From a virus, in the IMG/VR virus record IMGVR_UViG_3300027976_000006, positions 64,001-128,000 of that record: 64,000 bases of DNA. One strand, 5' to 3'. Under the pieces are notes generated by a model, which worked only from the letters and a program-made list of their open reading frames with translations, ran no database searches and was not told where the DNA came from. Shown one piece after another: positions 10,218 through 61,908 of this stretch. The translations under genes and the position numbers were made by a program. The first letter of the stretch is position 1. Every line of letters begins with the position of its first letter.

Positions 10218-10235
10218 TTAAAATCCGGATTTTAA
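10218..10235. promoter_or_regulatory. 18-bp perfect palindrome TTAAAATCCGGATTTTAA (dispersed motif)
   Basis: Self-complementary, intergenic, related copies elsewhere. Confidence 0.75.
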
Positions 10236-10252
10236 CCGGCAAGGATGCGTGT

Positions 10253-10603
10253 ATGTGGTTTGCACTGTCGGACGGAGGGGAGCTGAACAAAAACGAATTC
10301 TTGCAAGAACTAAGAATCAATCGTGTTTGTCCCCTGCTCGTGTATCATAAAGACGATCAACCAATCGTTCCTATTTTTTCAAGCCACGATCTTGCTGTTC
10401 GGTTTGCTCAGCGCAATACTTTAAAAGCCTGGTCGATTGGCTGTATGGAGGCGGTAGAGGAAGACATCCAAAAGTTGTGCAAAGAAGGATTTATTGTGGA
10501 GCAGCTGCATTGGCCCAGTAAGCGAGATGTTTCGGTACATATGCTTTGGCTAGAAAGAGAGGTAGACCCGATAACAAAAGGTTTTCGTAATAACATTGGA
10601 TAG
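10253..10603 (+). CDS. hypothetical protein (SseB-N-like VPIFSS motif)
   Basis: PIVPIFSSHDLAVRF; RBS GCAAGGATGC. Confidence 0.55.
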   Translation: MWFALSDGGELNKNEFLQELRINRVCPLLVYHKDDQPIVPIFSSHDLAVRFAQRNTLKAWSIGCMEAVEEDIQKLCKEGFIVEQLHWPSKRDVSVHMLWLEREVDPITKGFRNNIG

Positions 10604-10635
10604 TGTTACTTTAAAAGTTTACGAAAGGATTTCAC

Positions 10636-11328
10636 ATGTTTTGTTACTTATTTTTAATTGTGTTACCGTTGCAAGGGGCTGATCCAGTTTCCTTTCCTTA
10701 CGCTGGGCAGTATCAGTATCTGCCGTTAGCAAAGCAACAAGAGATATATAAAATCTGGCCTACGCCACTTGTGCTACCAGACAAATTGCATTTCTATGCC
10801 CGCTCAGGTTACAGCCAAAGGTTAACTATCACCAATGGGCTGGATCACCATATTTGGATGCCAACCTCGCAGGATGATTCTCTTGGGGCTCAAAACCCAA
10901 ATCGCAAGTCTCCATGGGTTGTATCCGGTGGCGCGGATGGTTTAACAGACTTTGTATCGTATGTGGGGGTTGCGTTCCCCAAGGATGCAACAGTAAACAT
11001 CTACAGTGAGAGCGTAGACGCGGGGGCTAGACGGCTATTACCTATGCACAAGTGGAGTTGGCCTAAGGGTTCCATCTTCATAGACATGCTGACGCATAAA
11101 AACCACACCTTTGAGGTGCGACAGCGAGAGAAGGTAGGGGAAGTTGACTGGGTTTCTAGTGTTATCTTCCACGATGCTCAGAAAGCTCCCAAAGAGTTTA
11201 AAGGTGCAGGGCAATCCTGTATATCGTGCCACGGTAAGGTAGGAAGTCAAGATGGCTATGGCATTCGTATACGGGGCGGAGATACAGTGTTTTCTCTGAC
11301 CCCTATTAGTTTACTACCCGGTAGATAA
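10636..11328 (+). CDS. exported c-type cytochrome-like protein
   Basis: Hydrophobic signal-like N-terminus; single CISCH heme-binding motif. Confidence 0.65.
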   Translation: MFCYLFLIVLPLQGADPVSFPYAGQYQYLPLAKQQEIYKIWPTPLVLPDKLHFYARSGYSQRLTITNGLDHHIWMPTSQDDSLGAQNPNRKSPWVVSGGADGLTDFVSYVGVAFPKDATVNIYSESVDAGARRLLPMHKWSWPKGSIFIDMLTHKNHTFEVRQREKVGEVDWVSSVIFHDAQKAPKEFKGAGQSCISCHGKVGSQDGYGIRIRGGDTVFSLTPISLLPGR

Positions 11329-11355
11329 TAGCGGGTTTTGGGGTGGCATGTAGCG

Positions 11356-11389
11356 AGGGGTGGGGGATTTTCTCCGCCCCTTTTTTTTT
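11356..11389 (+). terminator. Rho-independent terminator
   Basis: AGGGGTGGGGGA/TCTCCGCCCCT stem followed by T9. Confidence 0.85.
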
Positions 11390-11467
11390 GTCGGCACAGT
11401 TAAAAAATTAGTTATATTTGCTTAGATGCTGTGTACTTGCAGGGGGTACCATGCTTAAACTTATCTT

Positions 11468-11953
11468 ATGCACATAGATAAGTCGCACAACTACGATCAG
11501 AGGCAACAAAAACCTTTTCGGCACCAGCAAAAAGGTGGCGGGAAAGCGAGTTACGTTATGCCAGCTAAGACTATTCCTAAGATTTCCGTAGATTCGGCGT
11601 TTGCAGGGGCATGGCCCGTGTCCTTGCAAGTAAGCCGGCGTAGGCAGCAGATCATTCTGAGCGATATGAGTTCACACCCGTTGGCTGACCTTTGCTGCGG
11701 GCAATGGGAATGTGTTTTAAATCCGGAATTTAACTCTTTGTTTTTAAGCCCAGCAAAAGGTCAGAACAGGTTCTTACGCTACTGGGCAAAGAAGTTTGGT
11801 ATGCTGGGTCATACTCATTGCTTGGCGGTGCAACTGCCCAAGTCCCAAGTGATACTGTATCGCCCCGTGTGTGTGCAGGCAGATGGTGACCGTATTTGTT
11901 TTCAGTACTTAAACCGAGTTCCTAGTTTAACCAAGGTTGCCAATGCTGGATAA
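11468..11953 (+). CDS. hypothetical protein
   Basis: 161 aa ORF. Confidence 0.5.
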   Translation: MHIDKSHNYDQRQQKPFRHQQKGGGKASYVMPAKTIPKISVDSAFAGAWPVSLQVSRRRQQIILSDMSSHPLADLCCGQWECVLNPEFNSLFLSPAKGQNRFLRYWAKKFGMLGHTHCLAVQLPKSQVILYRPVCVQADGDRICFQYLNRVPSLTKVANAG

Positions 11954-18159: not shown

Positions 18160-18177
18160 TTAAATTCTGGATTTTAA
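18160..18177. promoter_or_regulatory. dispersed 18-bp palindrome copy
   Basis: TTAAATTCTGGATTTTAA fits TTAAAWTCYRGAWTTTAA. Confidence 0.7.
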
Positions 18178-21950: not shown

Positions 21951-22724
21951 ATGGCTTGGTACAATCGAGAAGACAAAGAAATTATTAATTTTATGGTTCT
22001 TGGAAATCAACACTCTGGGTATGGTTTATTACAATCTTCCTTAGCCGCGCATCCTGATATAGTATGCCACGGTGATTTACTTCACGACGACGAAAAGATT
22101 AGAAAAATTGAGCATTCCATGTACTTTGGAACGGCGGATAAGGTCACTGATCACTTTGATCCATCACATCTTAGTGTAGAACAATACTTTAATAACAAAA
22201 TTTTTGATAACATTTTTCACGGCGAAAAAGCCGTAGGTGTAAAGGTAAGCTACGATCATTTACGCCGCTACGATTTGTGGGAGTACATTGATCAGCGATG
22301 CCGCCAAGGTGATTTCTGTCTGGTGCATGTTGTCCGTAACCCGATTTCTTGCTATGTGGCCTGGAAACAGCAACACGTACTTAGCCGAGTTGAAAGCGGC
22401 AGCCGAGAACGATTGCCGGCTATTTGGGTGGACGCAGCAGAATTGACACAATTTGTACGGGAGCATGCGGCCACCGCAGCAAAAATAAATCGACTTTGTC
22501 CTGATCGCGCAATTATTCCTTACCACGAATTGATTTTAGATTTTCGCGGCGTGTTGGAAAAGTTGCTAGAATTCTTAGAATTGAAGTTTAGCTCAGTGTG
22601 TTTGCCTAACCAAAAGCGGGCACAGTGTAAGGATATACGCAGCCGGGTGACGAATTGGACAGATTTAAAAAATACAGTTCCTCGTGATGTTCTTGAATAT
22701 GCGGATAGCCCGACTTTATTTTAA
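21951..22724 (+). CDS. Stf0-like sulfotransferase-family protein, degenerate PAPS motifs
   Basis: FMVLGNQHSGYGLL..HPDIVCHGDLL, AVGVK, VHVVRNP, YHEL. Confidence 0.7.
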   Translation: MAWYNREDKEIINFMVLGNQHSGYGLLQSSLAAHPDIVCHGDLLHDDEKIRKIEHSMYFGTADKVTDHFDPSHLSVEQYFNNKIFDNIFHGEKAVGVKVSYDHLRRYDLWEYIDQRCRQGDFCLVHVVRNPISCYVAWKQQHVLSRVESGSRERLPAIWVDAAELTQFVREHAATAAKINRLCPDRAIIPYHELILDFRGVLEKLLEFLELKFSSVCLPNQKRAQCKDIRSRVTNWTDLKNTVPRDVLEYADSPTLF

Positions 22725-25619: not shown

Positions 25620-26057
25620 ATGGAAGCTTTTCTTCAGAGGTTGCGTACTGATGCAAACTTAGCTTACAAAGCGGCGGCTAGCCACAATGGTTGGTATATC
25701 GGCGACTCGCATATAAAAGGTAAAGGTATTTTTGCCTCCAAGGATTTTAATGAAGGTGCTCAGATTGGGCAAGGCGGTGCGGCGGGCGGTGAAGATGAAT
25801 TTGGGTCTAAAATCTGGAATTTAACGGAGTTGGCCCGTTATTGTAACCATCAGTGGAAATCGAACGTTGACATAAAGAAAAATAATGATCAGCTTGATTT
25901 AATCGCTAATAAAAAAATTAATAAAGATGAGGAAATTGTGGCGGATTATTCACAAATTTCTCGGGCGCTCGGAGCTAGATCCCGCATGCTGTGGCAGGGT
26001 AAAGATGTTCCTACTACAGATTTTTCGGACTATACTGAGAAAGACGCGCGTAATTAA
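25620..26057 (+). CDS. SET-domain protein methyltransferase
   Basis: SHIKGKGIFA, ARYCNH, INKDEEIVADY. Confidence 0.85.
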   Translation: MEAFLQRLRTDANLAYKAAASHNGWYIGDSHIKGKGIFASKDFNEGAQIGQGGAAGGEDEFGSKIWNLTELARYCNHQWKSNVDIKKNNDQLDLIANKKINKDEEIVADYSQISRALGARSRMLWQGKDVPTTDFSDYTEKDARN

Positions 26058-29602: not shown

Positions 29603-30031
29603 ATGTCCGTACAAGATCAACTAGACCAAGCTGTGCTTGCACTAACGACGCATTACAAGGAATACACAGCAGATGGAAAATTAACTTACAAAGAAGTGCT
29701 TTCGTTGCTATGCAACGGGGCTGCTACCCTTATTCGAGTAGTGGAGATATTTGGGGGAGGTAGCCGTGAAGACAACAAAAAGTTAGTGTTAGGCGGGCTT
29801 AGCACATTTTACGATAATGTAATTGCCCCAATAGACATTGTTGGCATCCCGAATATCATTGAGCCTGCGGTAGACGCGTCCATAAAATCGCTATTACTTG
29901 TTACGGTGGAGGGGGCTGCTGATTCATTATTCAATGTATTTGAAAAGATGGGTTGGTTGCACGCAGCTACACCACAAGCTCTGCGGTTAATGGGCGCAAC
30001 CGCTAAAGCGCAACCTGTTATGCTTTTTTAA
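29603..30031 (+). CDS. hypothetical protein
   Basis: 142 aa, AAGGAG RBS. Confidence 0.7.
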   Translation: MSVQDQLDQAVLALTTHYKEYTADGKLTYKEVLSLLCNGAATLIRVVEIFGGGSREDNKKLVLGGLSTFYDNVIAPIDIVGIPNIIEPAVDASIKSLLLVTVEGAADSLFNVFEKMGWLHAATPQALRLMGATAKAQPVMLF

Positions 30032-30045
30032 ATTCTAGATTTTAA
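30028..30045. promoter_or_regulatory. dispersed 18-bp palindrome copy
   Basis: TTAAATTCTAGATTTTAA overlapping a stop codon. Confidence 0.7.
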
Positions 30046-36562: not shown

Positions 36563-36636
36563 GAAACTAAGTAATATATCTCTATCGTAGATTTTAATTA
36601 GGGTTTAGAATCACAAGGTGAGATGACACAAGGAGT

Positions 36637-37627: not shown

Positions 37628-38203
37628 ATGGACAATTCTTTGCGCTCTTCCGACATATATTACAGAGATAGGCAACCAATAGTTGTGCCTAAGCCTGTGC
37701 CGATGCCGACTTATCGGCAATCTTCTAACGAAAGTTTTTCCAATAATAAATATTATGCGGAGATGTCAACACCGGCTGGCACAGACGACATAGTTAAAAT
37801 GCAACTGCGACCAAAAAAAGAATCGGAATTGGAGTTAGCGGATAACTGGGACGGTATAGCAACTTTTCAGAATGAATTTAAAGAAGGTGCCACTTCTATC
37901 GTGGTAAAATCAACTGAAGCTGTAATCCTGCAGTTACAAGTTGCTGTGGATATGGCAGTCGGGCGTAACGAGTTGACGAGAGAGCAGGTAGACTCTATAA
38001 CTTTTGTAGCAACAGCTCGTGCCCCGATTTTTGCGGTACCAAAAGTGCCTCCGATTAAAGAAACAACTGTTTCTCCCAAGAGCACACCCGAGGCAGCCGA
38101 TATCCTAAACGCCCCGACTAAACCGGGCAATAAAAAGGCAAAGCGGGGCATTACCCTGAAAGACATTGCAGCTGTGTTTGATGTCGACGATAGCGACGCT
38201 TAA
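37628..38203 (+). CDS. hypothetical protein
   Basis: 191 aa, coupled to previous gene. Confidence 0.6.
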   Translation: MDNSLRSSDIYYRDRQPIVVPKPVPMPTYRQSSNESFSNNKYYAEMSTPAGTDDIVKMQLRPKKESELELADNWDGIATFQNEFKEGATSIVVKSTEAVILQLQVAVDMAVGRNELTREQVDSITFVATARAPIFAVPKVPPIKETTVSPKSTPEAADILNAPTKPGNKKAKRGITLKDIAAVFDVDDSDA

Positions 38204-38217
38204 AATCCAGATTTTAA
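38200..38217. promoter_or_regulatory. dispersed 18-bp palindrome copy upstream of beta'(C)
   Basis: TTAAAATCCAGATTTTAA. Confidence 0.72.
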
Positions 38218-38244: not shown

Positions 38245-41200
38245 ATGTTGAACACAACCGTTGGGCAATTGTTGATTAATGATGTACTCCCCGAAGAGAT
38301 GAGAGACTCGCACCGTGTGTTAGATAAGAAGGGGTTGCAATCTTTATTACAACAAGTGGCGCAACAATACCCAGAACGCTATCGAGATATTTCTTTTCAG
38401 CTAAGCCAGCTAGGTCAAAGCATGGCGCAGCAGCAGGGTGGTATGTCGTTTGGTCTGCGACATCTGCAAGTAAGTAAAGCGGCTATGGCATCTCGGCAGA
38501 AAGTTAAAGTTTCACTTGCTAATATACTAGCGGACGACACATTGACGGACCGCCAACGAAATGACCAGATTATTCTTGCTGTTGGCAAGGAAAGTCCCGA
38601 GCAACAAAAGCAAGTTCTGGCAGAAGCATTAAAAGACAAAAACCCGCTTGGGCTGCAGGTGATGTCGGGAACCCGCGGTAAGTCGATGAACCTAACTAGT
38701 CTGCTGGGTTCGGATATGTTGTATTCTGACCAGCGTGACGAAGTGATTCCGATTCCTGTATTGCACAGTTATAGCGAGGGGTTGTCACCTGCGGAATATT
38801 GGGCTGGAACTTACGGGGCGCGCAAAGGGATTATGGCAACTAAGTTTGCCACACAAGAAGCTGGTTTTTTTAACAAGCAGCTAAACCAAACTAGTCATCG
38901 TCTTGTGGTTACGGGAGAGGATGCCGAGGAGGACAAAGACGCACCTATTCGTGGCTTGGTGGTAGACACCGAAGATGCGGATAACGAAGGTGCTTTATTG
39001 GCCCGTGACGCAGGTCCTTACGCACGCAATACCCCACTTACCCCGAAAATACTAAACCATTTACAACGGCTAGGGCACCCTAGAATTTTGGTACGCTCCC
39101 CGCTAGTTGGTGGTTCTCCCGAGGGTGGTGTTTATTCTAGAGATGTAGGTATTAGGGAAACAGGAAGGTTGCCGGGTATTGGGGAGCAAGTTGGGTTGCA
39201 GGCTGCACACGCTCTAAGTGAACCGATCAGCCAAGGGCAACTATCTGCAAAGCATTCTGGTGGGGTTGCGGGGCAAGAAAAAGCTGTAAGCGGGTTTCAA
39301 TATTTAAACCAATTAGTGCAGGTTCCTAAGAAAATGCAAGGCGGGGCAGCCCATTCCCTTACAGATGGCACGGTGCAGCGGATTGAGGCAGCTCCAGCGG
39401 GTGGTAGCTATGTGACCATCGGGGATAAAAGACATTATGTAGGAGTAGGGTATGAGCTTAAAGTTAAAAAAGGAGACGAAGTAGAAGCTGGTGATGTAAT
39501 TAGTACGGGGATTCCTAACCCCGCAACTATTACAGAGCATAAAGGAATTGGGGAAGGTCGGCGATATTTCGTTAACGAATTTCGTAAGGCTATGGGTGAC
39601 AGCGGAATGTTCGGACATCGGCGTAATGTTGAAGTGTTGGCAAGGGGGCTTATCAACCACGTAAGGTTGACGGAAGAAACTGACGATAACGTTCCTGATG
39701 ATATTGTACCTTATTCAACGCTTGAGCACACTTATAAGCCGCGGGCAGACTATCAGCGATTAACGCCCAAGCGTGCGTTAGGTCAATATCTTGAACGACC
39801 TGTGCTGCATTACACCATAGGCACCAAGATTCAACCCTCGATGCTTAAGAATTTTGAAGAATTTAAAGTTAATGAAATTCCAGTGCACAAGAACCCTCCT
39901 CCATTTGTGCCACAGATGGTACGTGGGTTGTATCAAATGCAGCACGACCCCGATTGGATGACACAAATGTATGGGTCTGGGCTGAAGAAAAGTTTTTTAG
40001 ACTCGGTTACGCATGGTGCAGTTAGCGAAGAGCGAGGTACAAGCTTTGTGCCGAGTTTGGCCTTGGGGCTTAATTTTGGTGAAGGCAGTGATCGTGCCGT
40101 AATAAAGCCGAAGTCTGGGGCAACTCCTCCTTTTTTTGGTGGCAGTTTTACTCCGGGTCAAACTAAATTTGCAGCAGATACTCCGAATGTCTCTGCCCCG
40201 CCTTCTGCTTCTAAACCGCCTGCTGTTTCTACCCCACCTAGAACTTTAGCTCCGGGCACAAACATTATGCCGACAGCACCGACACCTGTAAAAGCACCTA
40301 CACCTGCTCCGACATACTCGAACTCTAACGCAAATCAATTTAGTAATTTAATGCATAGTAATTCTCCCTTTGCTCAACAAACCGGGCAGGCGTTGAATCA
40401 AATGAATCCATTACACGCAATGATGATGTTGGGGGGGATGGCTAATAATAATAATAATAATAATATGTCTAGTAATATAATGAATGGGTTTGGCGGGCAA
40501 AATAATGGTGGAATGTTTAATATGTTTAATGGGGGGCAAAATAATAACGGGCAAAATAGCGGAGGAATGTTCAATAATATGTTTAATATGCCCAGCTCGT
40601 ACGATTCGGAATCTAACATGCCTGCTGAGCCTGTAACTGAAAGCCCATATGTCTCGGCTCAAGGTCCAGTAAGTAATACTGCCTCTGGTGCTGCGTATGA
40701 CACCGCAGCAAAGGGGGTAGGTGCGGGATATTCAGCAGTAGCAAATAAATTTTCAAGTCCTCCTATCTCATCTAATATTATGCCTCCGCCGTTGCCTAGA
40801 ACACCTCCTCCGATACCCGCTAAGCTTCCTCCGATACCCGGAATGACTCCTCCTCCGATACCAGGAATGACTCCTCTTCCGCTGCCTGGGGTTAAACCTC
40901 TGGCTGGTATGCTCAGTAAAGCCACTTCAATAGGTGGTACAGGTTTAAAGTTAGTAAGTAAAGCGGCACTGCCACTATCTGTGGCTCTGGACACAATAAA
41001 CGTCGGGCAAGACATATACAACAAAGGTTGGGATAATACAACTAACGACGCAGCACAAAAATGGCGAGATATACTTTCGGCCAAGGATGGGCTACATACC
41101 TTGTATCAAGCTCCATTACAAGTTCTAAACCCTGTGGCTAATGCACAATTAATTGCTGGCGGGGCAACACAGACTGCCCAGATGGTAGGAGAAAAAGCAC

Positions 41201-41865
41201 AAGAAGGGCTAACCCATGCGTATGACAAAGTAACGGGTACGGATACTCGTTCTCGTAATTTTGCAGAGGACAAGACACAAGTTAAAAACATGGAGTTAGA
41301 AAATCAAAGAGATTTAGAAGGACAAAGAGCACTAAATAAGCCGAATCCAAATCTACCCCCAGATAGGTTAGCTTTAAATACGCAAGAAAATGCCCGTCTT
41401 GATGCTAAAATACAAGATTCTAAAACGAGGCAAGGAAATACGGCGGATGAAACTGCAAACTGGAGGCTAGGCCAGCAAAATTGGTTTGGCAGTGGTGGCC
41501 ACAAATTTAGGGATGCTATGCAAAATTCGATTACTAATTCAGCTGCCGAATTGCAGGGTTTAAATAACGGAGGCACACTAGATGCAGGGCAGCAGGCTAG
41601 GAAAGAACAGTTAGAAAACGGACAAGCACAGCGTAAACAAATGATCGGTACTTACGATCGGGAGGGCGGGGCATCTGGTAAAGGTTTGTTTAGTACAGAT
41701 ATGCGCAACCGGGTTAGCAGTCTTAAGGAAAATATTGTGCAGGTCGGTTCACAACTTAGAGACCCCAACCTTCCTCCGGACCAAAAAGCAAAATTAGAGG
41801 CACAATTAAAAAATAATAATGAAATGTTAGAAGAATATCGAGGATGGGCAGAAAGTTCTAAATAA
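38245..41865 (+). CDS. RNA polymerase beta' C-terminal half (aa 1-~625) plus ~560 aa non-RNAP tail
   Basis: TTVGQ, SGTRG, EGLSPAEY..GARKG bridge helix, GEQVG..ALSEPISQ..KHSGG trigger loop, NVEVLAR. Confidence 0.92.
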   Translation: MLNTTVGQLLINDVLPEEMRDSHRVLDKKGLQSLLQQVAQQYPERYRDISFQLSQLGQSMAQQQGGMSFGLRHLQVSKAAMASRQKVKVSLANILADDTLTDRQRNDQIILAVGKESPEQQKQVLAEALKDKNPLGLQVMSGTRGKSMNLTSLLGSDMLYSDQRDEVIPIPVLHSYSEGLSPAEYWAGTYGARKGIMATKFATQEAGFFNKQLNQTSHRLVVTGEDAEEDKDAPIRGLVVDTEDADNEGALLARDAGPYARNTPLTPKILNHLQRLGHPRILVRSPLVGGSPEGGVYSRDVGIRETGRLPGIGEQVGLQAAHALSEPISQGQLSAKHSGGVAGQEKAVSGFQYLNQLVQVPKKMQGGAAHSLTDGTVQRIEAAPAGGSYVTIGDKRHYVGVGYELKVKKGDEVEAGDVISTGIPNPATITEHKGIGEGRRYFVNEFRKAMGDSGMFGHRRNVEVLARGLINHVRLTEETDDNVPDDIVPYSTLEHTYKPRADYQRLTPKRALGQYLERPVLHYTIGTKIQPSMLKNFEEFKVNEIPVHKNPPPFVPQMVRGLYQMQHDPDWMTQMYGSGLKKSFLDSVTHGAVSEERGTSFVPSLALGLNFGEGSDRAVIKPKSGATPPFFGGSFTPGQTKFAADTPNVSAPPSASKPPAVSTPPRTLAPGTNIMPTAPTPVKAPTPAPTYSNSNANQFSNLMHSNSPFAQQTGQALNQMNPLHAMMMLGGMANNNNNNNMSSNIMNGFGGQNNGGMFNMFNGGQNNNGQNSGGMFNNMFNMPSSYDSESNMPAEPVTESPYVSAQGPVSNTASGAAYDTAAKGVGAGYSAVANKFSSPPISSNIMPPPLPRTPPPIPAKLPPIPGMTPPPIPGMTPLPLPGVKPLAGMLSKATSIGGTGLKLVSKAALPLSVALDTINVGQDIYNKGWDNTTNDAAQKWRDILSAKDGLHTLYQAPLQVLNPVANAQLIAGGATQTAQMVGEKAQEGLTHAYDKVTGTDTRSRNFAEDKTQVKNMELENQRDLEGQRALNKPNPNLPPDRLALNTQENARLDAKIQDSKTRQGNTADETANWRLGQQNWFGSGGHKFRDAMQNSITNSAAELQGLNNGGTLDAGQQARKEQLENGQAQRKQMIGTYDREGGASGKGLFSTDMRNRVSSLKENIVQVGSQLRDPNLPPDQKAKLEAQLKNNNEMLEEYRGWAESSK

Positions 41866-42245: not shown

Positions 42246-44720
42246 ATGGAAATGCCTAAGCAGAGTAATTCAATAAAGAACGCCAGCATAGGCGGTAAAG
42301 GCGGGGAGACGGAATTTGCCCAGGCTTTTTCCAGCTTAGCCTATGCATACCTAAAAGACAAGGCACCACGACTTCTTGACTATATGTTGGGTTTTCAGCT
42401 AATTGATCGCAATGAAGATAATACTAAAGCAGTTGGTGTTTTTGGTTTCCAGCTCGACAAACAGTGGCTTTATGCCCCTGTATTTTTTTTAAACGGCGAT
42501 TTAAAAGGGCATGAGTTGCTATACGTAAAAAACAATGATTCATTTGTTCCGATGAAAGAAAACTGGATTAACTATCTGATGAGTCGAAAGCCTCATATTT
42601 TAGGCGAACCTTCAGTAAACAAATTGCAAGAGCTTGGTGGGATTGCTCCTGACATTAATTCGTTGTCCTTGTCACCTACCGGCAACAAGAACGCAAGTGA
42701 CATATATTGGCTTCGTCCAGTGCTACCCATGCTGGCAGCTTTTAAAGTAAAACTTGCTAACTCCTTGTATCGAGGAGCGGGCAATCGGCAGCTTGATCAA
42801 AAGGCGATTGTTCGATCGCCATTTACGGCTGCATTAGCCAAGACTGCTTCAAATCTGGATTTTAACCAAGTTCTGCCTAAAAGTCTCTTACTGCTTGAAG
42901 CTGCCTATGACTTAGCCGAGCGGTACCCTGCCATCAAAAAAGCTACTTGTGATTTTTACGGAGCTAACTGTTTTTCACGCTGGGGGAAAGAATTTAGAAG
43001 CAATACGATCAAGCAAGCTAGCAGCATTCTTTATTCACCTACCACGGTCACACTTACATCTACTAATTTGTTAAGCGGGGCAGCACAATCGAGGCCTACC
43101 ATCGATCACATTAAAGAAGGCAAGCTACAAGTCGTTACTTCCGTAACTTCGGATCAAGGCGGGCTGGATACTAAAGACCAAGAGAACTTATTGCAGGGCA
43201 AGATAGTTATTAAGGATAGGCGAGAAGATGCAGAAGTAAGTAAAGTCTATGCAACAGAAAACGAGATTAGACTTTTCAATCCTTCTGAAACCGAACTGTA
43301 CTCTGTACTGGAGAAGTCTGGAGAATTTAGCAAAATGCTGGTGGTGTTAAACGGGATTAGCAGCCGCGGCGCTGAATATATGACCACAGTAATACGCATA
43401 GACGATAAGGATAGTCAGAACAAAAGTTGGTTAAACGCAGACAATACGGCAGTTTTTGCTACGCAAGTTTCCATGGACAAAAATGATTGGAAAGATTGGT
43501 TCGATGGTTTATCCTCCGAGACTGACTTAGCCGAGGAGGCTGAATATATTGCGATAAACGCCACCCATTCCGCCACTGCTCCTTTTCATGTACTCACCGA
43601 TATGGGAGATGGGCAATATAAAGTAGATTTTCGCATAAGTAAAGATTATCTATCTTCTCGTGACTCGCTGCTGCCACAGGTACAATCGCGCTACGCTAGC
43701 GGGGGCGACAACCGCACTCGCGGTGTGACTCTAATTGTGGGTAAACAGGATAAACCAGGGCTTAGACTTCGACCCCTGTCCAGCGAACTGTGCGTGCCTG
43801 CATCTTTTAAATTTATTAAACTGTCTGATGGTTCTTCCTCTGGCTTTTTTGGTAGTTGCGGTTGTTCTCCTTTGGACGAAGATTCAAACCCAATTAAGTT
43901 AGGTAGCTTAAGCGACATTCAACGATTGCTGGTTGAAAAAACAGCCAGGCTTAAAGTGTTCAATAACGGAACTGACGTCTACCTGGATTCGGTTATTGGC
44001 TCTGTGCAGTTAAGTAAAAAGGCAGCATTATGCCAGCTGGTCGCCACACATGGCCTACGCGAAAAAGCAGCCATGGACATGCTGAAAAAAGCGGAGCAGA
44101 AAGGACATGCTGTTTATCGTGTTCGATATGCCCCAGGTTATGGGGCCGAAAAGCAAGCTGCTCCAAATACCAGTGTGCTAGCTGGTGGCCCTACTTTCCC
44201 GCTTGATACTGAATCAAATAACGATGGTAGTGAGACTTATGGCCCTAGCACTTCTGTCCGAACCCAGACTAGTACGGAAAAAACTTCGCCCATACCTTCA
44301 TTAAGCGGGCGTAACACAAATAGGTCCAAGTGGGACAACTGGCAAAACTTCGAGGCTAAGGATTTTAAGCAAAATCTGCAGGCGGCACAAGTCGCGGGCA
44401 AGGAAGGGCAGAAAGAAGTGTTTGATGTTTCGATGATGGCTGGTATGTTAAAAACAGTGCGACAAGATTCAATTGTAGACCGCCACTTAGGTGATTTAAT
44501 GTCGGCGTTAGATTCGCTAGGTCGTTTGATAATGAATTTCTACTGGCACCAGGAAGAATTTGAAGATCGGTATGGCAAAAGTGATCTTCCGGAGTTGGAA
44601 GATAGTTTGCGTAACGCTTTTGAATCTCTTGGGGATATCACACTTTTCTTAAAAGAAAAAACCATAGAATCGTCGGCGGATAAAGGTGATATTAACTTAG
44701 ATGAAGTTTCAAGGAACTAA
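42246..44720 (+). CDS. large putative inner-head/core protein
   Basis: 824 aa, many KxA sites, start of head module. Confidence 0.55.
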   Translation: MEMPKQSNSIKNASIGGKGGETEFAQAFSSLAYAYLKDKAPRLLDYMLGFQLIDRNEDNTKAVGVFGFQLDKQWLYAPVFFLNGDLKGHELLYVKNNDSFVPMKENWINYLMSRKPHILGEPSVNKLQELGGIAPDINSLSLSPTGNKNASDIYWLRPVLPMLAAFKVKLANSLYRGAGNRQLDQKAIVRSPFTAALAKTASNLDFNQVLPKSLLLLEAAYDLAERYPAIKKATCDFYGANCFSRWGKEFRSNTIKQASSILYSPTTVTLTSTNLLSGAAQSRPTIDHIKEGKLQVVTSVTSDQGGLDTKDQENLLQGKIVIKDRREDAEVSKVYATENEIRLFNPSETELYSVLEKSGEFSKMLVVLNGISSRGAEYMTTVIRIDDKDSQNKSWLNADNTAVFATQVSMDKNDWKDWFDGLSSETDLAEEAEYIAINATHSATAPFHVLTDMGDGQYKVDFRISKDYLSSRDSLLPQVQSRYASGGDNRTRGVTLIVGKQDKPGLRLRPLSSELCVPASFKFIKLSDGSSSGFFGSCGCSPLDEDSNPIKLGSLSDIQRLLVEKTARLKVFNNGTDVYLDSVIGSVQLSKKAALCQLVATHGLREKAAMDMLKKAEQKGHAVYRVRYAPGYGAEKQAAPNTSVLAGGPTFPLDTESNNDGSETYGPSTSVRTQTSTEKTSPIPSLSGRNTNRSKWDNWQNFEAKDFKQNLQAAQVAGKEGQKEVFDVSMMAGMLKTVRQDSIVDRHLGDLMSALDSLGRLIMNFYWHQEEFEDRYGKSDLPELEDSLRNAFESLGDITLFLKEKTIESSADKGDINLDEVSRN

Positions 44721-47799: not shown

Positions 47800-48898
47800 T
47801 ATTACTTATGAGCAAGGGTTGCAGTTACTGGCGGCTCGAAAGCAGGCTTTTGACTCGGGGCGTATCCGTCGTATGTCTAAAGAGGCAATGGCTACTTCCT
47901 TTTATTTGCGCGACATCGGTACAGATTTTTTAGGGAAGGTAGCAGAATCTGGTTTGCTCGATTCTTTAAAATCCGGATTTGGAAGTTTAGGATCTATGGA
48001 TGCTTCTACGCGTAATGTGCTGTTATCGGGGTTAGCCGGTGCTGGCGTTGGGGCAGGCACAAATGCGGCATCCTCCCTACTGAAAGGCGAAGAAGGGGTA
48101 GGCTGGAAAGCGTTAACTGGTGGGTTGGCCGGTGGGGCTGTTGGGGGCGGGATTGGTTTGGCGCTTAACCCGGATATACTAAGCAAATTTGTTGACAAAA
48201 ATCAAAACGGGCCACCCGATTCTACCCCTCCAAATAGAAATTCGCAAGTAGCTGCGGCTATAAAAAGCAGATCCCCAGCAGAACAGTTAGCGGAAATAGA
48301 CAAGTTACAAGGTGTGGCAGACAGCAGTATGCCAGAAATTAAAAGCTACGCGGCACATGGGGCAAACGTGGCGGCGGGTGGCGCTGCTGGTGCCTATGTG
48401 GCAACTAGAGCTACATATAATCCTGATGACATTGCACATAAGCTACGCACCGAGCTACACATGGCAGACCCTAGCAACACTCACACCTACGAGCGGTTTC
48501 ATCGTGGAATGACAGCCCCAGACCTCGGCGTAATTGACGACGTAGCCCGCGCCAAACTTAGAGATGACATGCTTAAAATGACTCGCGATCAGTTTAGAGA
48601 TGCATATGTGCCTAAATCTCGGTTTGGGCGTATTCCTTCTACTTTTGCGAGTAATTTACATACAGCTGCCCCTAACATGGCTGATGCGATTCTTAAAAAC
48701 AATACTGTAACTGGCGGTATGTTTACTGGTGCGGGCAAAATACGATCGGGCAAGGCAGGTATACTGGCGGCACTAGCCGGACTCGTTGCGGCAGGGGCTG
48801 GGACTATACGCCACAACTACAATCAAAATAATGCAGAACGCAGCAATGCACAAGAAACATTAAAATCGTTAGCTGGTCTTACTAAGCAACAGCAGTAA
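47777..48898 (+). CDS. Cys-free glycine-zipper virion/ejection protein
   Basis: KVA then GLAGAGVGAG, GGLAGGAVGGGIG. Confidence 0.65.
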   Translation: MAALSLSSITYEQGLQLLAARKQAFDSGRIRRMSKEAMATSFYLRDIGTDFLGKVAESGLLDSLKSGFGSLGSMDASTRNVLLSGLAGAGVGAGTNAASSLLKGEEGVGWKALTGGLAGGAVGGGIGLALNPDILSKFVDKNQNGPPDSTPPNRNSQVAAAIKSRSPAEQLAEIDKLQGVADSSMPEIKSYAAHGANVAAGGAAGAYVATRATYNPDDIAHKLRTELHMADPSNTHTYERFHRGMTAPDLGVIDDVARAKLRDDMLKMTRDQFRDAYVPKSRFGRIPSTFASNLHTAAPNMADAILKNNTVTGGMFTGAGKIRSGKAGILAALAGLVAAGAGTIRHNYNQNNAERSNAQETLKSLAGLTKQQQ

Positions 48899-53769: not shown

Positions 53770-53807
53770 CTAAGTTAGCCCTGGACTGCTGGGGCTAACT
53801 TAGTTTT
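53770..53807 (+). terminator. terminator after MCP
   Basis: 12-bp stem CTAAGTTAGCCC/GGGCTAACTTAG then TTTT. Confidence 0.75.
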
Positions 53808-53833
53808 AAAATCCAGAATTGGAGTAATGAATT

Positions 53834-54259: not shown

Positions 54260-54294
54260 AGATCGACTGGTTACAATAAACCGGTCGATTTTTT
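54260..54294 (+). terminator. terminator
   Basis: ATCGACTGGTT/AACCGGTCGAT stem then T-run. Confidence 0.65.
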
Positions 54295-54307
54295 ATTTTA
54301 GAAAGTA

Positions 54308-56546: not shown

Positions 56547-56562
56547 CATAGGGGCACCCAAT

Positions 56563-57432: not shown

Positions 57433-57439
57433 GACACTT

Positions 57440-57703
57440 ATGCCATATATTCCAAGATCGCCAGCTGCCGCCCTTCCTAACTTAGAAAGCGTGCCTCGTG
57501 CCCCTTCTCGTGCAACTTCAGGAAAGCCTTCAGTCCCTTATGCTGAAACTTCTAACACGAATAAAGCTAATCCTTTAGTAGGTCGGTTAAGTATGTTAAA
57601 ATTCGATGTGCCGGCTCTTAGCATTTTAAATCACATAACAGGTAAGGAGTTTAAAGTCGATGGATACAACAGACTGGTGCCCCCCGAGCGTACCTCCTCC
57701 TGA
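57440..57703 (+). CDS. hypothetical protein
   Basis: 87 aa ORF with AGGA RBS. Confidence 0.45.
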   Translation: MPYIPRSPAAALPNLESVPRAPSRATSGKPSVPYAETSNTNKANPLVGRLSMLKFDVPALSILNHITGKEFKVDGYNRLVPPERTSS

Positions 57704-58391
57704 ACGAGATGCACCAAAAGTACAAAGTACGATTGATATCAGTTACTTGTGCGACAACGGGTGGCAACCTCTTCTTATTACTGGATTTATTCGGGATTTG
57801 CTTATCAGACAGTGGGCTAACCCACATAATATTATTAGTCCGGAAATGAAACAATATGGCTGGCAGGAACAAGTAAGCTCTGGTATACTTATCGAAAGTG
57901 TGTATCGTTATAGATCTGATCTTGTTGAAAAACGACCAGCTATAATGATAAAAAGAAATGCTTTTAAAGATATGCCACTTGGCTTAGGCGGTGGTTTTAT
58001 CTTTGGAGGCGGTCTTGACGCATACGAAACCGAAAAGGGTGCAATTAGTCGGCACGCAACTGTATTTGTCGGTTCGCACACTCTTTTCTGCATCCATAAA
58101 ACGGGTGCTTCAACGGAGATTCTTGCTGCGGAGGTCCTAGGGCATCTGGTTGCCTGCATGTGGCCGATTCGCCAGAATCTTGGATTGAGAAATTTCTCAG
58201 TCACCGATGTAGGGGCTATTCAAGAACTTGAAGAGTCCACCGAGAATTATGTGATTCCTATAACTGTTGGGTGGGCTTACGAGCACACTTGGGAGCTTAA
58301 ACAAGAATCACTGCCCGTGCAAGGTTTTTCGTTTACTGGTGTACTGGATGGAGACGACATTAGTTTGAACTCTCCATATCAAGGCCCATAA
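57660..58391 (+). CDS. tail terminator/completion protein
   Basis: RPAIMIKR motif, directly upstream of sheath. Confidence 0.55.
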   Translation: MDTTDWCPPSVPPPERDAPKVQSTIDISYLCDNGWQPLLITGFIRDLLIRQWANPHNIISPEMKQYGWQEQVSSGILIESVYRYRSDLVEKRPAIMIKRNAFKDMPLGLGGGFIFGGGLDAYETEKGAISRHATVFVGSHTLFCIHKTGASTEILAAEVLGHLVACMWPIRQNLGLRNFSVTDVGAIQELEESTENYVIPITVGWAYEHTWELKQESLPVQGFSFTGVLDGDDISLNSPYQGP

Positions 58392-58422
58392 CTCTTATAC
58401 ATTCTTAGGCAGGAGGCCACCA

Positions 58423-61230
58423 ATGGCAACTTATGTTCTTCCGCAAGTTCTTGTTTTCCAGGATTTTACCATACAGCCATCCGTGGCTGCTAACCCTTTG
58501 TCCGCACACATATCGGGCGGGCATGCCAAGCTTGTTCGTTGGAGCGAGGAATCCGAACGAGAATTTGGTAATTTAGGTTTTTATGACAATGGTACTTCGT
58601 TAGTTTCGGCTTGGCCACATCGACCAGCTGGTGCGGTAATGGATACCAGCTACACTAAACTGTTTATAAAAGACGCATTGTTGAAGTATTTTACCGAGGC
58701 AACCAGCGGTGGTTCTAATATTAGTGTGGTTTCTAGCTACCGCAATAGAATTACATCTGATTCGGTAAACTTCACTTCTAGTGGTGCGTATGTGCGTGCC
58801 TCCGCTTTAGGTAACCGAGATGCAAAAATTGGTGATGTTATCCGCATACGCGGTGTTGCTGAAGGAACTAATGCCACGGCTGATGTCCTCACTTTATGGA
58901 CTTACATTCGTGGATTTATCGCGGAGACAGTTGCTTCTTCCGTCGCTGCCCCGCTATCAGCTTCTAGCAATAAAGTAACTCAAGCCGCAGCTTCAGTTGC
59001 AACTCGGACTAGCGGGGTGGCTAACTCCATCACCATCACACCTGCGGGCACCTACAATGGGTTGCCTTCCGGCATAATTACTGAAGTTTACACTCTTACC
59101 GTGGTGGACGGGTCAATCAATGGTGATTTGACTACCGCTCGTTTGCGTGTTACTTCAGCAAGCGGAACGGATAATGTGGCTGCCTTGTTTCCTGCTGCAG
59201 GCGTCGCCGTAGGTGCACGCGGGTTGCTCGTGACTTTTGGTAGCACTCCTACCTCAGATACTGCGGCTACTTCTACGGATGCTGGTGTTAGCGATGTAGA
59301 TTTGTTAGTTGGGCAAGTGTTTACTATGACCGTTTCCCAGACATTTGACGCACCTGTCAAAGCAACAAGCGGAACATACACAAACACTGCTGACACTAAC
59401 TATATTGTTACAGTCACTAAAGGCGGGGCATGGTCAGCTCACCCTGAGATTTCTGTTTCTACGGCAGACGGGATTGATCAAAGCGGCCCCACCATTATAA
59501 ATACGACTGTCGCTACTTCTATTGGTAACTATGGCGTTTTAATCGAGCTAACCAGTACAGCTGGCTTGTGCAAAGGCGATCGCTTTTACATTCAGGCTAC
59601 TGGCATCGGTGAAGGTGCAGTCCGAACCCTCGTGCTTGGACATAACTTAGACCAAACTTTTGGGGGTGGCGAGAATATCGGAATTGACCTTTACATCCGC
59701 AAGCCACTTCTTGAAGTGACTCAGAATCGTACAGGTATGGCTCCGTTGACTAACTGGGATCAGTCTTCCCTTGAGTTTACGGTAAATTCTGGCATTGTTG
59801 CTTACGACGCTGAGGTAGGTATCGCAACTGCGTTGGATGTTTATTCTTCTGCCGCCCTTGGCTACGGTGAGTTATATGCTGAGTATCGTGCGTGGTTACC
59901 TGATTTGGCGGGCAAAGTTAACAGCATTATCGATGTTGGCAACATTGACGATATCTCGGGTTCATTAACTCCTGACAATCCGCTTAAATGGGGCGTATTT
60001 AAAGCGTTATCCAACAACAACGGCACTCCCGTGCTGTACACTGCGGTTAACGATCCCAATGATATCAATTACTGGGATGAAGTGATAGAAGTGTTGTTAG
60101 GGAGAGATGACGCTTATAATTTGGTACCCTTGACCTACGACGCGACAGTGATTGGGCTGTTTCAAGCTCACATCAATAGTGCGTCATCCGCATCTGAAGG
60201 AGCTTGGTGTGTGCTTTGGGCGAACTTGCAAGGCGTGCCTGAAATTCCTCTTGTTGCGGCTGCGTCTACTATTGCCAATCACATGGAAGCCACCAGCACA
60301 AATGGAGAAATTGTTTTGGCGAATTTTGAAGAAAATTCTGCCACAGATGCAACAGATTACACAATTTGTTATGTTCCCTCCGGCAACGCTGGGTTTGAGC
60401 ACAACGGTGTAAGGCCCGGGGACATTGTTCGGGCACTGTACACTGGAGATGGTTTTGGCAACTTTACCTACAGCGAATTTGTTGTAGACGAAGTGCTGTC
60501 CGAAGACCAGCTCCGTGTCAAGACGGGACCTTCCATAGCACAGCTAGTTCCTTCCAAAATAGAAGTTTGGAGGACATTATCCGCCAGTGAAGAAGCTGTT
60601 GAAATTGGTAAAAATGCAGCTGCTTATGGGAATCGGCGCGTTAGAGCCACTTGGCCCGACCGCATTGAATCCTCCGGTACAATTCAACTAGGTTACTTTT
60701 TGAACTGTGCTCTCGCTGGTTTAGCCTCGGCAGTACTTCCTCAGCAAGGTTTGACCAATGTAGAGGTTGTCGGATTTTCTAGTACACAACGCACAAACGA
60801 TAAGTTTAATAAGCCACAACTAAATATTATGGCTACTGCTGGTGTGTGGGTTGTACAGCAGTCTGCTACTGGAAACATACATACCAGACATTCGGTAACA
60901 ACTGGCGATTATATTGATATTAACCAGCGAGAAGAAATGCTGACGCGTAATGTAGACAGCATCAGCTACCGGTTTAAGGATTACTTTGCTCCGTTTATTG
61001 GCGTTACTAACGTAACTCCAACAATGAACGACATCATTCTTGGGGGTATTGAAAAGCTAATTCGCACTTTGCGAGTAGAGCGGGCTACCCCTCAACTTGG
61101 CGGACAGCTGATTGGTGCAACTGTTGAACGTTTCGATGTGTCAGAAGTGTTTAAAGATCGCTATGTTGCTTTCATTAGTTTGCAAGTACCATATGCACTT
61201 AACAACATTGAATTACACCTTGTAGTTTAA
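58423..61230 (+). CDS. contractile tail sheath protein
   Basis: MATYVLPQVLVFQ start, LAGL..QQGLTN, RNVDSIS, VPYALNNIELHLVV end. Confidence 0.85.
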   Translation: MATYVLPQVLVFQDFTIQPSVAANPLSAHISGGHAKLVRWSEESEREFGNLGFYDNGTSLVSAWPHRPAGAVMDTSYTKLFIKDALLKYFTEATSGGSNISVVSSYRNRITSDSVNFTSSGAYVRASALGNRDAKIGDVIRIRGVAEGTNATADVLTLWTYIRGFIAETVASSVAAPLSASSNKVTQAAASVATRTSGVANSITITPAGTYNGLPSGIITEVYTLTVVDGSINGDLTTARLRVTSASGTDNVAALFPAAGVAVGARGLLVTFGSTPTSDTAATSTDAGVSDVDLLVGQVFTMTVSQTFDAPVKATSGTYTNTADTNYIVTVTKGGAWSAHPEISVSTADGIDQSGPTIINTTVATSIGNYGVLIELTSTAGLCKGDRFYIQATGIGEGAVRTLVLGHNLDQTFGGGENIGIDLYIRKPLLEVTQNRTGMAPLTNWDQSSLEFTVNSGIVAYDAEVGIATALDVYSSAALGYGELYAEYRAWLPDLAGKVNSIIDVGNIDDISGSLTPDNPLKWGVFKALSNNNGTPVLYTAVNDPNDINYWDEVIEVLLGRDDAYNLVPLTYDATVIGLFQAHINSASSASEGAWCVLWANLQGVPEIPLVAAASTIANHMEATSTNGEIVLANFEENSATDATDYTICYVPSGNAGFEHNGVRPGDIVRALYTGDGFGNFTYSEFVVDEVLSEDQLRVKTGPSIAQLVPSKIEVWRTLSASEEAVEIGKNAAAYGNRRVRATWPDRIESSGTIQLGYFLNCALAGLASAVLPQQGLTNVEVVGFSSTQRTNDKFNKPQLNIMATAGVWVVQQSATGNIHTRHSVTTGDYIDINQREEMLTRNVDSISYRFKDYFAPFIGVTNVTPTMNDIILGGIEKLIRTLRVERATPQLGGQLIGATVERFDVSEVFKDRYVAFISLQVPYALNNIELHLVV

Positions 61231-61239
61231 TGTAGCCTT

Positions 61240-61270
61240 TCTAGGGGGCTAGCCAGCCCCTTGGATTTTT
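61240..61270 (+). terminator. terminator-like hairpin between sheath and tube
   Basis: TCTAGGGGGCT/AGCCCCTTGGA then T5. Confidence 0.55.
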
Positions 61271-61328
61271 CTTAGTGACTAACCGCCGTAGTGGCAGCAC
61301 GGCTTTATAACTTCAAGGAGTAATTAAC

Positions 61329-61889
61329 ATGGCAGACATCTATTCACGACAAAAAACGCAATTTGCCGGAGCTTTTGCTTCGGATGTTGCGGCTTTAACG
61401 CTTGCGGGGGCTACTACTGGTCTTGGTATAGTACAGAATGTTCAAGTGACATATGCGCAGCAAGTTGCTCGCATTTATGATGTTTCAAATGGCGGTCTTG
61501 GCGGAGGTGCCGCAGCCGGTATCGTTCCTGTATTCTACGTGGGCGGGCGTACTCAAGGGCAAGGAACGATTGCACGAGTTCTTGGACCAAAATCTGGAGC
61601 TCTTTGCGACTTCTATAACAGCATGGGTAATGTTTGTTCCCCTCAAGATCTAACATTTACATTTGGCGGAGGTTGCGGGGTATCGGGTGCCTCAGGCAAA
61701 AATCCATCTAAAGTCGCAGCAATAACAAATAATGCGGGTAGCAACACTTTTAATAAAGTGGCGTACACACTAACAGGTGCACTAATGACCAACATTGGTG
61801 TTACCGTGGGCTCGCAAGATATGCTTGTAAATGAGAGTATTACACTCATGTTTGCAAACATGGAGTGCAGCGACGCTTCTGGTAAATAA
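61329..61889 (+). CDS. tail tube protein
   Basis: Follows sheath; VQNVQVTYAQQVARIYDV..YVGGRTQG..ESITLMF. Confidence 0.75.
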   Translation: MADIYSRQKTQFAGAFASDVAALTLAGATTGLGIVQNVQVTYAQQVARIYDVSNGGLGGGAAAGIVPVFYVGGRTQGQGTIARVLGPKSGALCDFYNSMGNVCSPQDLTFTFGGGCGVSGASGKNPSKVAAITNNAGSNTFNKVAYTLTGALMTNIGVTVGSQDMLVNESITLMFANMECSDASGK

Positions 61890-61890
61890 G

Positions 61891-61908
61891 TTAAATTCCG
61901 TATTTTAA
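61891..61908. promoter_or_regulatory. dispersed 18-bp palindrome copy (1 mismatch)
   Basis: TTAAATTCCGTATTTTAA. Confidence 0.6.

Follow-up and report, generated by a model that had tools for sequence, protein, structure and literature searches.

The stretch of DNA analyzed here (the window) is 64,000 nucleotides (nt) long and comprises bases 64001 to 128000 of the 156,975-bp IMG/VR record IMGVR_UViG_3300027976_000006 (G000), a viral genome with an estimated completeness of 76%, 44% GC, and about 90% of its open reading frames (ORFs) on one strand. An 18-bp palindrome is dispersed through the window, recurs across the rest of the record, and is found in related phages. The palindrome is real and under strong selection at the DNA level, since neither a chance count nor a lack of conservation in relatives held. 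We tentatively propose that it is a KorB-like, autoregulated, genome-wide operator bound by a dimer of a phage-encoded protein of 300 amino acids (aa), here called p300, and that it gates transcription units; we give this reading a little less than an even chance. The p300 gene and some of the sites lie in parts of the record outside the window. Gene calls throughout are longest-ORF calls, the records used are 76 to 94% complete, and the sites in relatives are not independent samples.

An initial annotation of the window had listed ten copies of the palindrome, and all ten coordinates and mismatch counts were reproduced (four exact copies, four with one mismatch, and two with two mismatches). 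The pattern TTAAAWTCYRGAWTTTAA had 4 exact matches in the window (10218, 18160, 30028, and 38200) versus 0.00 in dinucleotide-preserving shuffles of the sequence, and 10 matches with up to two mismatches versus 0.04. Across the whole record there were 18 sites, and a reversed control pattern gave 0. The 12-bp core AAWTCYRGAWTT occurs 16 times in the record, where a third-order Markov model predicts 0.43 occurrences, and a symmetrized weight matrix retrieved 19 sites at ≥14 bits versus 0.2 in shuffles, with the sites scoring 17 to 29 bits and a clear gap below them. By all three approaches (shuffles, Markov model, and weight-matrix scans) the match count lies far above background, which excludes chance matches in AT-rich DNA. 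Mismatches are confined to the three outermost positions of either arm; within the core, only two W positions and the central YR vary. A full-text literature search for the core sequence returned primers only, and no published description of the motif was found.

Relatives were gathered by a pattern scan of IMG/VR for contigs with many copies, and further ones were added by protein searches. G001 (179 kb) and G002 (173 kb) have 21 sites each and share about 75% identity with G000; G002 is 85% identical to G001. Three fragments with 94 to 99% identity to G001 (G003, G004, and G005) have 7, 10, and 6 sites, respectively. More distant are G009 (80 kb, 10 sites, about 68% identity over 13 kb) and G010 (194 kb, 94% complete, 21 core sites, about 68% identity over 61 kb). 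These numbers are pattern counts, and strict-core or weight-matrix counts are somewhat higher in G001, G002, G009, and G010; sites per genome range from 18 to 31. Three unrelated contigs with a single exact match had no enrichment of sites.

Each of the 18 sites in G000 aligns to a site at the orthologous position in both G001 and G002, and at least 8 of the 18 also have one in G010 and/or G009. Identity within the motif is 0.96 and 0.95 in the comparisons with G001 and G002, respectively, versus 0.74 and 0.76 for the 60-nt flanks. At seven sites in well-supported genes, 93 to 95% of third-codon positions are conserved within the motif versus 50 to 54% beside it (Fisher P about 2e-8), and intragenic copies are read in all three frames. 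Conservation in relatives, synonymous positions included, had been put forward in the initial annotation as a check on the motif, and it is what we found. Weak intragenic copies turn over between lineages. Since this is the only turnover, and since orthology is complete at 75% identity with 10 sites inside ORFs, a mobile repeat of the repetitive extragenic palindromic (REP) or miniature inverted-repeat transposable element (MITE) type was rejected. The motif is unchanged across contigs of 38 to 61% GC.

Several properties speak for a duplex-DNA site of two-fold symmetry that is read by a protein dimer: covariation between the W positions is absent, half-sites on their own are about as frequent as chance predicts, folding as RNA yields next to no hairpin, and no flank is conserved. 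The two W positions (W6 and W13) are complementary in 38 of 86 sites (44%), below the 53% expected for independently varying half-sites, and both arms share the same preferences. Folded as RNA, the palindrome reaches only -0.2 to -1.1 kcal/mol (z from -1.9 to +0.8), no better than shuffles. We therefore rejected a hairpin or cruciform, and the same values speak against the N4-like hairpin promoters that the initial annotation had offered as one possible function. Lone half-sites number 4 and 11 in the two orientations of G000 versus 3.8 expected per orientation, and 2 to 8 in relatives, so the half-site was rejected as the unit. Between -60 and +45 no conserved flanking sequence was found except purines at +19 to +22, which correspond to the Shine-Dalgarno sequence; hidden flanking promoter elements were thus rejected for this interval, and the asymmetry of stoperator-type sites was not found, the motif being a two-fold dyad with no conserved asymmetric flank. 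Nor is the motif itself an intrinsic terminator, as its stem would be A/U only and it has no U-run of its own; terminators elsewhere in the genome are ordinary GC-rich hairpins followed by a U-run. The full dyad is the unit, its half-sites vary independently, and the constraint acts on DNA, in agreement with the dimeric DNA-binding protein that the initial annotation had deduced from the symmetry.

One lone right half-site (AGATTTTAA, window 36589-36597) is located in a conserved 74-nt spacer past the gene for a fused RNA polymerase subunit (beta-beta'N, described below). It is probably due to chance, because lone half-sites are not enriched overall.

The sites favor gene borders. In each of five lineages, 6 to 8 sites per genome are border sites, where 6 to 9% of sites would be expected (P from 9e-5 to 3e-3), a 4- to 6-fold enrichment. 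Border sites sit in minimal gaps: the TAA in the left arm often serves as the upstream stop codon (30028 and 38200), the Shine-Dalgarno sequence of the next gene begins at or in the right arm, and the start codon lies 8 to 13 nt past the motif at most of these sites. Larger intergenic regions nearby are without sites. The genes served in this way encode p300, a 147-aa protein (past a 240-nt spacer), a 116-aa protein, a ferredoxin-like protein, a 132-aa protein that heads the run to beta-beta'N, the RNA polymerase beta'C subunit, a 127-aa protein, and a 934-aa protein. Another five sites are found 100 to 300 nt ahead of major genes, namely a large gene whose counterpart in relatives encodes DNA polymerase A and the genes for an SbcD-like protein, a ribonucleotide reductase, a 526-aa protein, and a 261-aa protein. 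The sites at 25807 and 11716 fall inside upstream ORFs, 200 to 280 nt ahead of the next gene, and those at 42848 and 47966 are deep inside genes. The initial annotation had placed all exact sites at gene or RNA boundaries. All four exact sites are indeed at gene borders; the mention of RNA boundaries is unsupported, because a search of the window for tRNA and Rfam RNA found none. The operator function that was among its suggestions fits these positions.

The even spread of sites claimed in the same annotation was also recovered. Gaps between the 18 sites of G000 are more regular than random (coefficient of variation [CV] 0.52, P=0.002), as are those in G001, G002, G009, and G010 (CV 0.52 to 0.59, P from 0.001 to 0.004); with the strict-core list of G000, which has two sites fewer, the CV is 0.80 and not significant. 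The sites are dispersed every 6 to 9 kb across the record, with no single-locus or origin cluster of the kind seen in ParABS centromeres.

A perfect site at record position 57593, 6.4 kb before the window, directly precedes the gene for p300 (record 57621-58523, 5.5 to 6.4 kb before the window), a basic protein (pI 9.4) whose gene is followed by a clean terminator. Each of the 16 contigs examined has the palindrome ahead of its p300 gene, and together they cover about 12 lineages, 25 to 82% protein identity, and 38 to 61% GC. The palindrome lies 4 to 20 nt ahead of the p300 start in 15 of these contigs and 85 nt ahead in the most distant one, with a terminator-like hairpin between; three of the copies carry one core mismatch. 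The conserved gene order is primase-like, DNA polymerase A with a uracil-DNA glycosylase (UDG) domain, RecA-like, a 187-aa gene, the palindrome, and p300. Such a pattern would be expected for an autoregulated DNA-binding protein and its operator, and we regard it as circumstantial evidence for that relationship.

Homologues of p300 form 71 clusters, nearly all unnamed and many of them on contigs of 100 to 200 kb; none was found in 50,697 GenBank phage records. The nearest cultured relatives by RNA polymerase are Salmonella phage Arash and Vibrio phage D181 (26 to 28% identity), whose complete genomes contain no site even with two mismatches; promoters or motifs go unmentioned in the Arash paper. 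A distant fragment, G011, has neither p300 nor sites. A search for an exact-palindrome family in G011 and the first 50 kb of Arash gave nothing, by a method too strict to be informative.

The protein-atlas structure neighbors of p300 are Noc, ParB, and KorB-type proteins. An AlphaFold (AF2) model built from 51 sequences (predicted local distance difference test score [pLDDT] 83) is all-helical, and predicts two long helices at the N terminus, then a core of ParB/KorB/SopB/Noc fold, an R-x-GGRKP arm, and finally a C-terminal helical hairpin that, judging from the model, may mediate dimerization. The core domain was modeled alone (pLDDT 84) and compared with 48,161 PDB representatives, of which 8 scored Z ≥5. 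Six of these are ParB-family DNA-binding domains, aligned over 93 to 101 residues: Caulobacter ParB with parS (6s6h, Z 7.5, root mean square deviation 3.0 over 96 residues), Thermus Spo0J (1vz0, Z 7.2), KorB with its operator in two entries (8qa8, Z 6.4; 1r71, Z 6.3), and SopB with its 18-mer, likewise in two (3mkw, Z 5.2; the other, Z 5.1). The other two are Raf1, and unrelated rows begin at Z 4.5. In a Foldseek search with the core, ranks 1 to 24 were all ParB, SopB, Noc, or Spo0J (probability 0.6 to 1.0, TM score ≤0.55), the Noc entries being 7ng0, 7nfu, and 6y93.

At the sequence level, 48 of the 51 members of the p300 family match DUF1016_N, and 22 of the 51 have a weak, sub-threshold match to HTH_ParB (PF17762; best E-value 0.008). 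A p300 profile search against PDB sequences returned nothing. The invariant R-x-GGRKP-x-x-P after the core resembles an AT-hook, with Pfam AT-hook matches in 7 members, and we speculate that the A/T arms of the palindrome are recognized by this segment. The ParB_N CTPase domain (PF02195) had no match in G000, G001, or G010 at an E-value of ≤0.1, and only two long helices lie ahead of the DNA-binding domain in the model. A ParA-type ATPase (PF13614, the only ATPase family searched) likewise had no match in these three genomes. By its predicted structure p300 shares the ParB DNA-binding fold, but by N-terminal domain or sequence threshold it falls outside the ParB family. The description of the palindrome as parS/NBS-like in the initial annotation (NBS, Noc-binding site) thus finds support from an unforeseen side, as the gene that always follows one site encodes a protein whose modeled core has the ParB/KorB/SopB/Noc DNA-binding fold.

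From these observations we infer that p300 is the binder and that transcriptional control is the outcome. A p300 dimer would bind its own leader, resulting in autoregulation, and would bind some 20 to 30 further sites, about every 6 to 9 kb, preferring the gap at the front of a gene block that separates one gene's stop codon from the Shine-Dalgarno sequence of the next. From these positions p300 would control access to the transcription units of a nearly one-directional genome as a global regulator, either repressing them or serving as a roadblock. Because the site fills the stop codon/Shine-Dalgarno slot, the dimer might act either on polymerases arriving from upstream, as a roadblock, or on initiation that overlaps the site.

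A number of points weigh against this proposal. The fold matches are moderate (Z <8, Foldseek E 0.1 to 0.7), and p300 of G000 itself has no HTH_ParB (PF17762) sequence match. Other sites, for example that before the polymerase gene, are as conserved as the site before p300, which makes the link between p300 and the palindrome only circumstantial and means that synteny alone does not single out p300. No promoter was identified upstream of the border sites, and a roadblock at the head of late genes requires a relief mechanism, for which we have none to name. Even spacing would be expected of an architectural element more than of one that acts solely near promoters. At least five sites are 0.6 to 1.9 kb from any gene start and are anciently conserved nonetheless; such deep intragenic sites, like the even spacing, are poorly explained by gating of transcription and fit a structural role.

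An alternative hypothesis is therefore that the palindromes organize or position the genome, serving as marks akin to centromeres or NBS, to which p300 or another dimer binds so as to bridge, compact, or position replicating DNA, with any effect on transcription being secondary. We consider this unlikely, although the regular gaps, the deep intragenic sites kept at orthologous positions, and a candidate binder with a ParB-type fold all agree with it, and the long N- and C-terminal helical hairpins of p300 could bridge sites. Positioning might proceed via a filament of the phage tubulin, as a tubulin/FtsZ-family gene (window 6956-8218; PF00091, 42 bits) is conserved in the clade, including G001 and G010. 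However, p300 does not carry the CTPase domain that ParB has at its N terminus, and a search for a ParA-type ATPase (PF13614) found none; borders are enriched 4- to 6-fold, with minimal, purpose-built gaps used rather than the larger intergenic regions; and G000 has no cluster of sites beside the tubulin operon. Known tubulin-based partition, moreover, uses TubR and direct repeats.

Somewhat less probable, in our view, is that the palindrome is a promoter or core recognition element of the phage multisubunit RNA polymerase, with transcription starting inside the motif or at its edge. About 20 to 30 near-identical copies are typical of phage-polymerase promoters, the left arm includes TAAAWT, which resembles a -10 element, one strand carries nearly all genes, and the sites stand at the heads of gene blocks and 100 to 300 nt ahead of major genes. 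The 127-aa gene, located between a strong hairpin and a terminator, has the motif alone upstream. Yet a promoter with strict dyad symmetry would be active in both directions, in a genome that is read from one strand, and a start codon 8 to 13 nt past the motif implies a transcription start inside the bound or melted motif. A strong terminator comes directly after site 61891 and does so at the orthologous sites as well, and five sites are located far inside genes. No sigma-like factor was found: a search for a sigma factor gave one sub-threshold match, in G001, which has a stop codon. A single RNA polymerase set lies among the head genes of the record, in which beta and the N-terminal part of beta' form one fused protein (beta-beta'N, 1494 aa, window 32078-36562) and the rest of beta' is separate (beta'C, 1206 aa, 38245-41865); no second RNA polymerase was found in the record. 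In phage Arash the beta and beta' subunits are abundant in the virion (PMC10585845).

It is also conceivable, although we think it improbable, that a protein other than p300 reads the palindrome, whether another unannotated phage protein, a host factor, or a stand-alone protein resembling the C-terminal domain (CTD) of the RNA polymerase alpha subunit. Most proteins of this phage are without annotation. Pfam and PHROG scans of 30 small conserved proteins revealed no classical helix-turn-helix (HTH) protein or repressor, only the alpha-CTD-like protein. This 104-aa homologue (record 33571-33885, about 30.1 to 30.4 kb before the window) matches Pfam RNA_pol_A_CTD with an E-value of 1e-10 and alpha CTDs in PDB with values down to 7e-5, and it occurs in all five lineages. 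It keeps R265, N268, N294, and G296 of the DNA-binding determinant of alpha CTD and is an odd find, as the phage polymerase has no alpha subunit. Its presence in all lineages with the determinant intact speaks for it as the binder, and the arms of the motif resemble the A/T tracts that such a domain naturally targets; but alpha CTD reads the minor groove of A-tracts, which leaves the invariant TC..GA center unexplained, and no motif lies beside its gene. ORF 8238 (8238-8537, 99 aa, after the tubulin gene), named in the initial annotation as a possible binder, is acidic, has no Pfam or PHROG family, and gives a low-confidence model with FtsQ/POTRA-like neighbors only and none with a DNA-binding fold; we dropped it as a candidate.

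A host factor finds no support in the distribution of the motif among prokaryotes. In a scan of one genome per species from 185,579 prokaryote species, there were essentially single, scattered matches among the matches listed, and hence there is no sign of a host regulon among them. The only multi-copy match among those listed was a contig of a metagenome-assembled genome of Calothrix sp. (JAAUPE010000112.1, 2640-2713), on which three exact 18-mer copies 28 bp apart form an unrelated tandem repeat.

An equally improbable, more elaborate possibility is a chromosome-marking system, in which a CTPase-less ParB-fold protein on about 25 evenly spaced dyads insulates or gates transcription units and also hands replicating DNA to the phage tubulin, a ParB-fold adaptor here replacing TubR or a phage nucleus. 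If true, this would be a new kind of DNA-positioning machinery, previously undescribed. An RNA-level signal (hairpin, processing site, translational operator, or terminator) is very improbable: although most border copies directly adjoin a Shine-Dalgarno sequence, the right arm of the motif fits the loose RNase E consensus, and one G009 copy tops a terminator stem, the two stem positions do not covary, hairpin energies are the same as those of shuffles, the motif has no U-run of its own in a genome that uses ordinary GC-rich terminators, and mid-gene sites are conserved.

Coordinates of the sites in the window and of the two RNA structures next to them are listed below.

Palindrome copies and adjoining RNA structures in the window (positions are those of the window)
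Feature	Position	Strand	Context
Palindrome, exact (TTAAAATCCGGATTTTAA)	10218..10235	.	Between acyl carrier protein (ACP)-like gene (9956-10207) and 116-aa gene (10253), start codon 17 nt past site; orthologous site in G001, G002
Palindrome, 1 mismatch	11716..11733	.	In weakly conserved ORF; 335 nt past terminator 11357-11380, ~200 nt ahead of 526-aa gene (11937)
Palindrome, exact	18160..18177	.	13 nt ahead of start of 179-aa ferredoxin-like gene; preceded by 330 nt without convincing ORF
Palindrome, 1 mismatch	25807..25824	.	Within SET-domain ORF (25620-26057), 280 nt ahead of ribonucleotide reductase gene
Palindrome, exact	30028..30045	.	Includes stop codon of gene 29603-30031; 8 nt ahead of 132-aa gene heading run to RNA polymerase beta-beta'N gene
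Palindrome, exact	38200..38217	.	Includes stop codon of gene 37628-38203; 27 nt ahead of RNA polymerase beta'C gene (38245-41865)
Palindrome, 1 mismatch	42848..42865	.	Deep in 824-aa gene, 1.9 kb from next start; same place in G001, G002, G010
Palindrome, 2 outer-arm mismatches	47966..47983	.	Within 373-aa gene; kept in G001, G002
Conserved strong hairpin, -23 to -26 kcal/mol	53772..53801	+	Directly upstream of site 53806; poor U-run in G001, G002
Palindrome, 2 mismatches	53806..53823	.	Right arm doubles as Shine-Dalgarno (TTGGAG); 10 nt ahead of 127-aa gene, then terminator 54263-54288
Palindrome, 1 core mismatch (perfect in G001)	61891..61908	.	Begins 2 nt past stop codon of 186-aa gene; terminator next
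Intrinsic terminator (hairpin 61913-61938 + U-run)	61913..61950	+	Directly after site 61891; compensatory changes keep structure in G001, G002, G010
Weak extra site (TTCAATTCCGGCTTTTAC, 17.4 bits)	7549..7566	.	Within tubulin gene; no counterpart in G001 / G002 site lists

The weak extra site in the tubulin gene is probably non-functional, because the G001 and G002 lists hold no matching site. An inverted repeat around site 11716 was discarded, as it is not kept in G002. Only clear hairpins were used, because the terminator finder was noisy. Three loci pair the motif with RNA hairpins: a hairpin lies upstream of 53806, a terminator downstream of 61891, and one copy in G009 forms the top of a stem. 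Two single-gene units follow the order motif, gene, terminator. The hairpin ahead of 53806 may be a processing or stabilizing hairpin rather than a terminator, because its U-run is poor in both G001 and G002. The G009 copy (64629-64646, reverse orientation) is flanked by GCCGGT and ACCGGC plus a T-run, so that it forms the upper stem of a perfect intrinsic terminator, and within the tubulin operon it immediately follows the ORF 8238 orthologue.

The interval that separates the terminator downstream of site 61891 from the 934-aa gene (window 61939-61985) contains a small hairpin kept by compensatory changes (GAGTTTtAAACTC here, GAGCTTTAAGCTC in G001). The same interval holds a leader, AAACGCACC-N4-GGTGAGA-N5-ATG, that hardly varies, G010 with its 68% identity included. 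Because its CACC/GGTG stem would mask the Shine-Dalgarno sequence, this leader may control translation.

Two other genes of the window lie among the metabolic genes of the phage. One encodes a small SET-domain protein (Pfam SET, E-value 2e-7; 25620-26057), in which the palindrome falls just before the SET-matching part, and the other encodes a sulfotransferase-family protein (Sulfotransfer_3, E-value 9e-10; 21951-22724). Elsewhere in the record, a 35-nt element (CCTAAATAATAGGYAAATCSGTGTCATTATTATAT) occurs in two copies (8369-8410 and 10075-10110), each after strong terminators in an early-looking region, and is kept in G001 and G002. These copies are candidate early promoters of a class other than the palindrome.

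The clade to which these genomes belong consists of widespread, uncultured phages of roughly 200 kb, and almost nothing is known of how their genomes are controlled. Its traits include one multisubunit RNA polymerase, rearranged and encoded in the head module, a tubulin, and a majority of genes that match no family. The 18-bp palindrome as proposed operator and its testable candidate binder from an uncharacterized family (DUF1016_N-like, with the ParB fold and no CTPase) would be the first cis/trans pair for the clade, and the exceptionally conserved palindrome is unchanged down to 25% identity of the candidate binder. If p300 is indeed a KorB-like regulator, the ParB fold would extend to clamp-less, genome-wide regulators in lytic phages, the long-unexplained dyads of Cluster O mycobacteriophages would gain a parallel, and site and protein would make a compact orthogonal operator-repressor pair.

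Several known systems resemble the palindrome in part. N4 promoters are extruded hairpins with a paired stem and a 3-nt loop; like them, the palindrome is an inverted repeat at gene heads in a phage that probably packages its RNA polymerase, but its stem does not covary, its hairpin is unstable, and the polymerase is multisubunit. The stoperators of Cluster A mycobacteriophages are 13-bp, asymmetric sites, oriented with transcription, through which a monomeric repressor (L5 gp71) silences the prophage. They share with the palindrome the spread of tens of copies over the genome in short intergenic gaps, and a single phage regulator that reads them blocks the elongating polymerase. In contrast, the palindrome is a strict dyad, and no sign of lysogeny turned up, with no search aimed at it. 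Noc/NBS, ParB-Spo0J/parS, and SopB/sopC are similar in that 14- to 18-bp palindromes are read by a dimer of the same fold, and NBS sites are many, scattered, and mostly inside genes. p300 differs from these proteins in having no CTPase/spreading domain, and whereas parS clusters near origins, the palindrome is evenly dispersed and favors gene heads.

The nearest phenomenon in phages is found in Cluster O mycobacteriophages, whose genomes of ~70 kb contain 34 copies of a 17-bp dyad (TGTTCGGNNNCCGAACA), about 40% of them intergenic, with no known function (PMC4351075). Further repeats lie just inside gene starts in these phages, which also encode a protein with a ParB-like domain (PMC4351075). 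The likeness consists in more than 30 invariant dyads throughout a phage genome. Sequence, host, and phage type are unrelated, the Cluster O repeats are denser, and no binder is tied to them by conserved synteny.

The closest working analogue is KorB of plasmid RK2, whose OB operators are dispersed through the plasmid (PMC3597684); the KorB/OB system (OB core TTTAGCGGCTAAA) has been described (PMC11790492; PMC3597684). In KorB a ParB-fold DNA-binding domain reads a short palindrome, a role for which p300 is the candidate here. In both systems the sites are scattered along the entire replicon, at promoters in some cases and distant from promoters in others, with a copy at the regulator's own operon; in the phages the counterparts are 18 to 31 dispersed sites per genome, one of which precedes the p300 gene in every contig examined. 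The phage system differs in its 18-bp site with A/T arms, in its roughly 200-kb phage genome, and in a sequence similarity that stays below family cutoffs. p300 is without the N-terminal CTPase domain that KorB needs for its sliding clamp and long-range action, and no KorA-like partner and no IncC/ParA were found for it.

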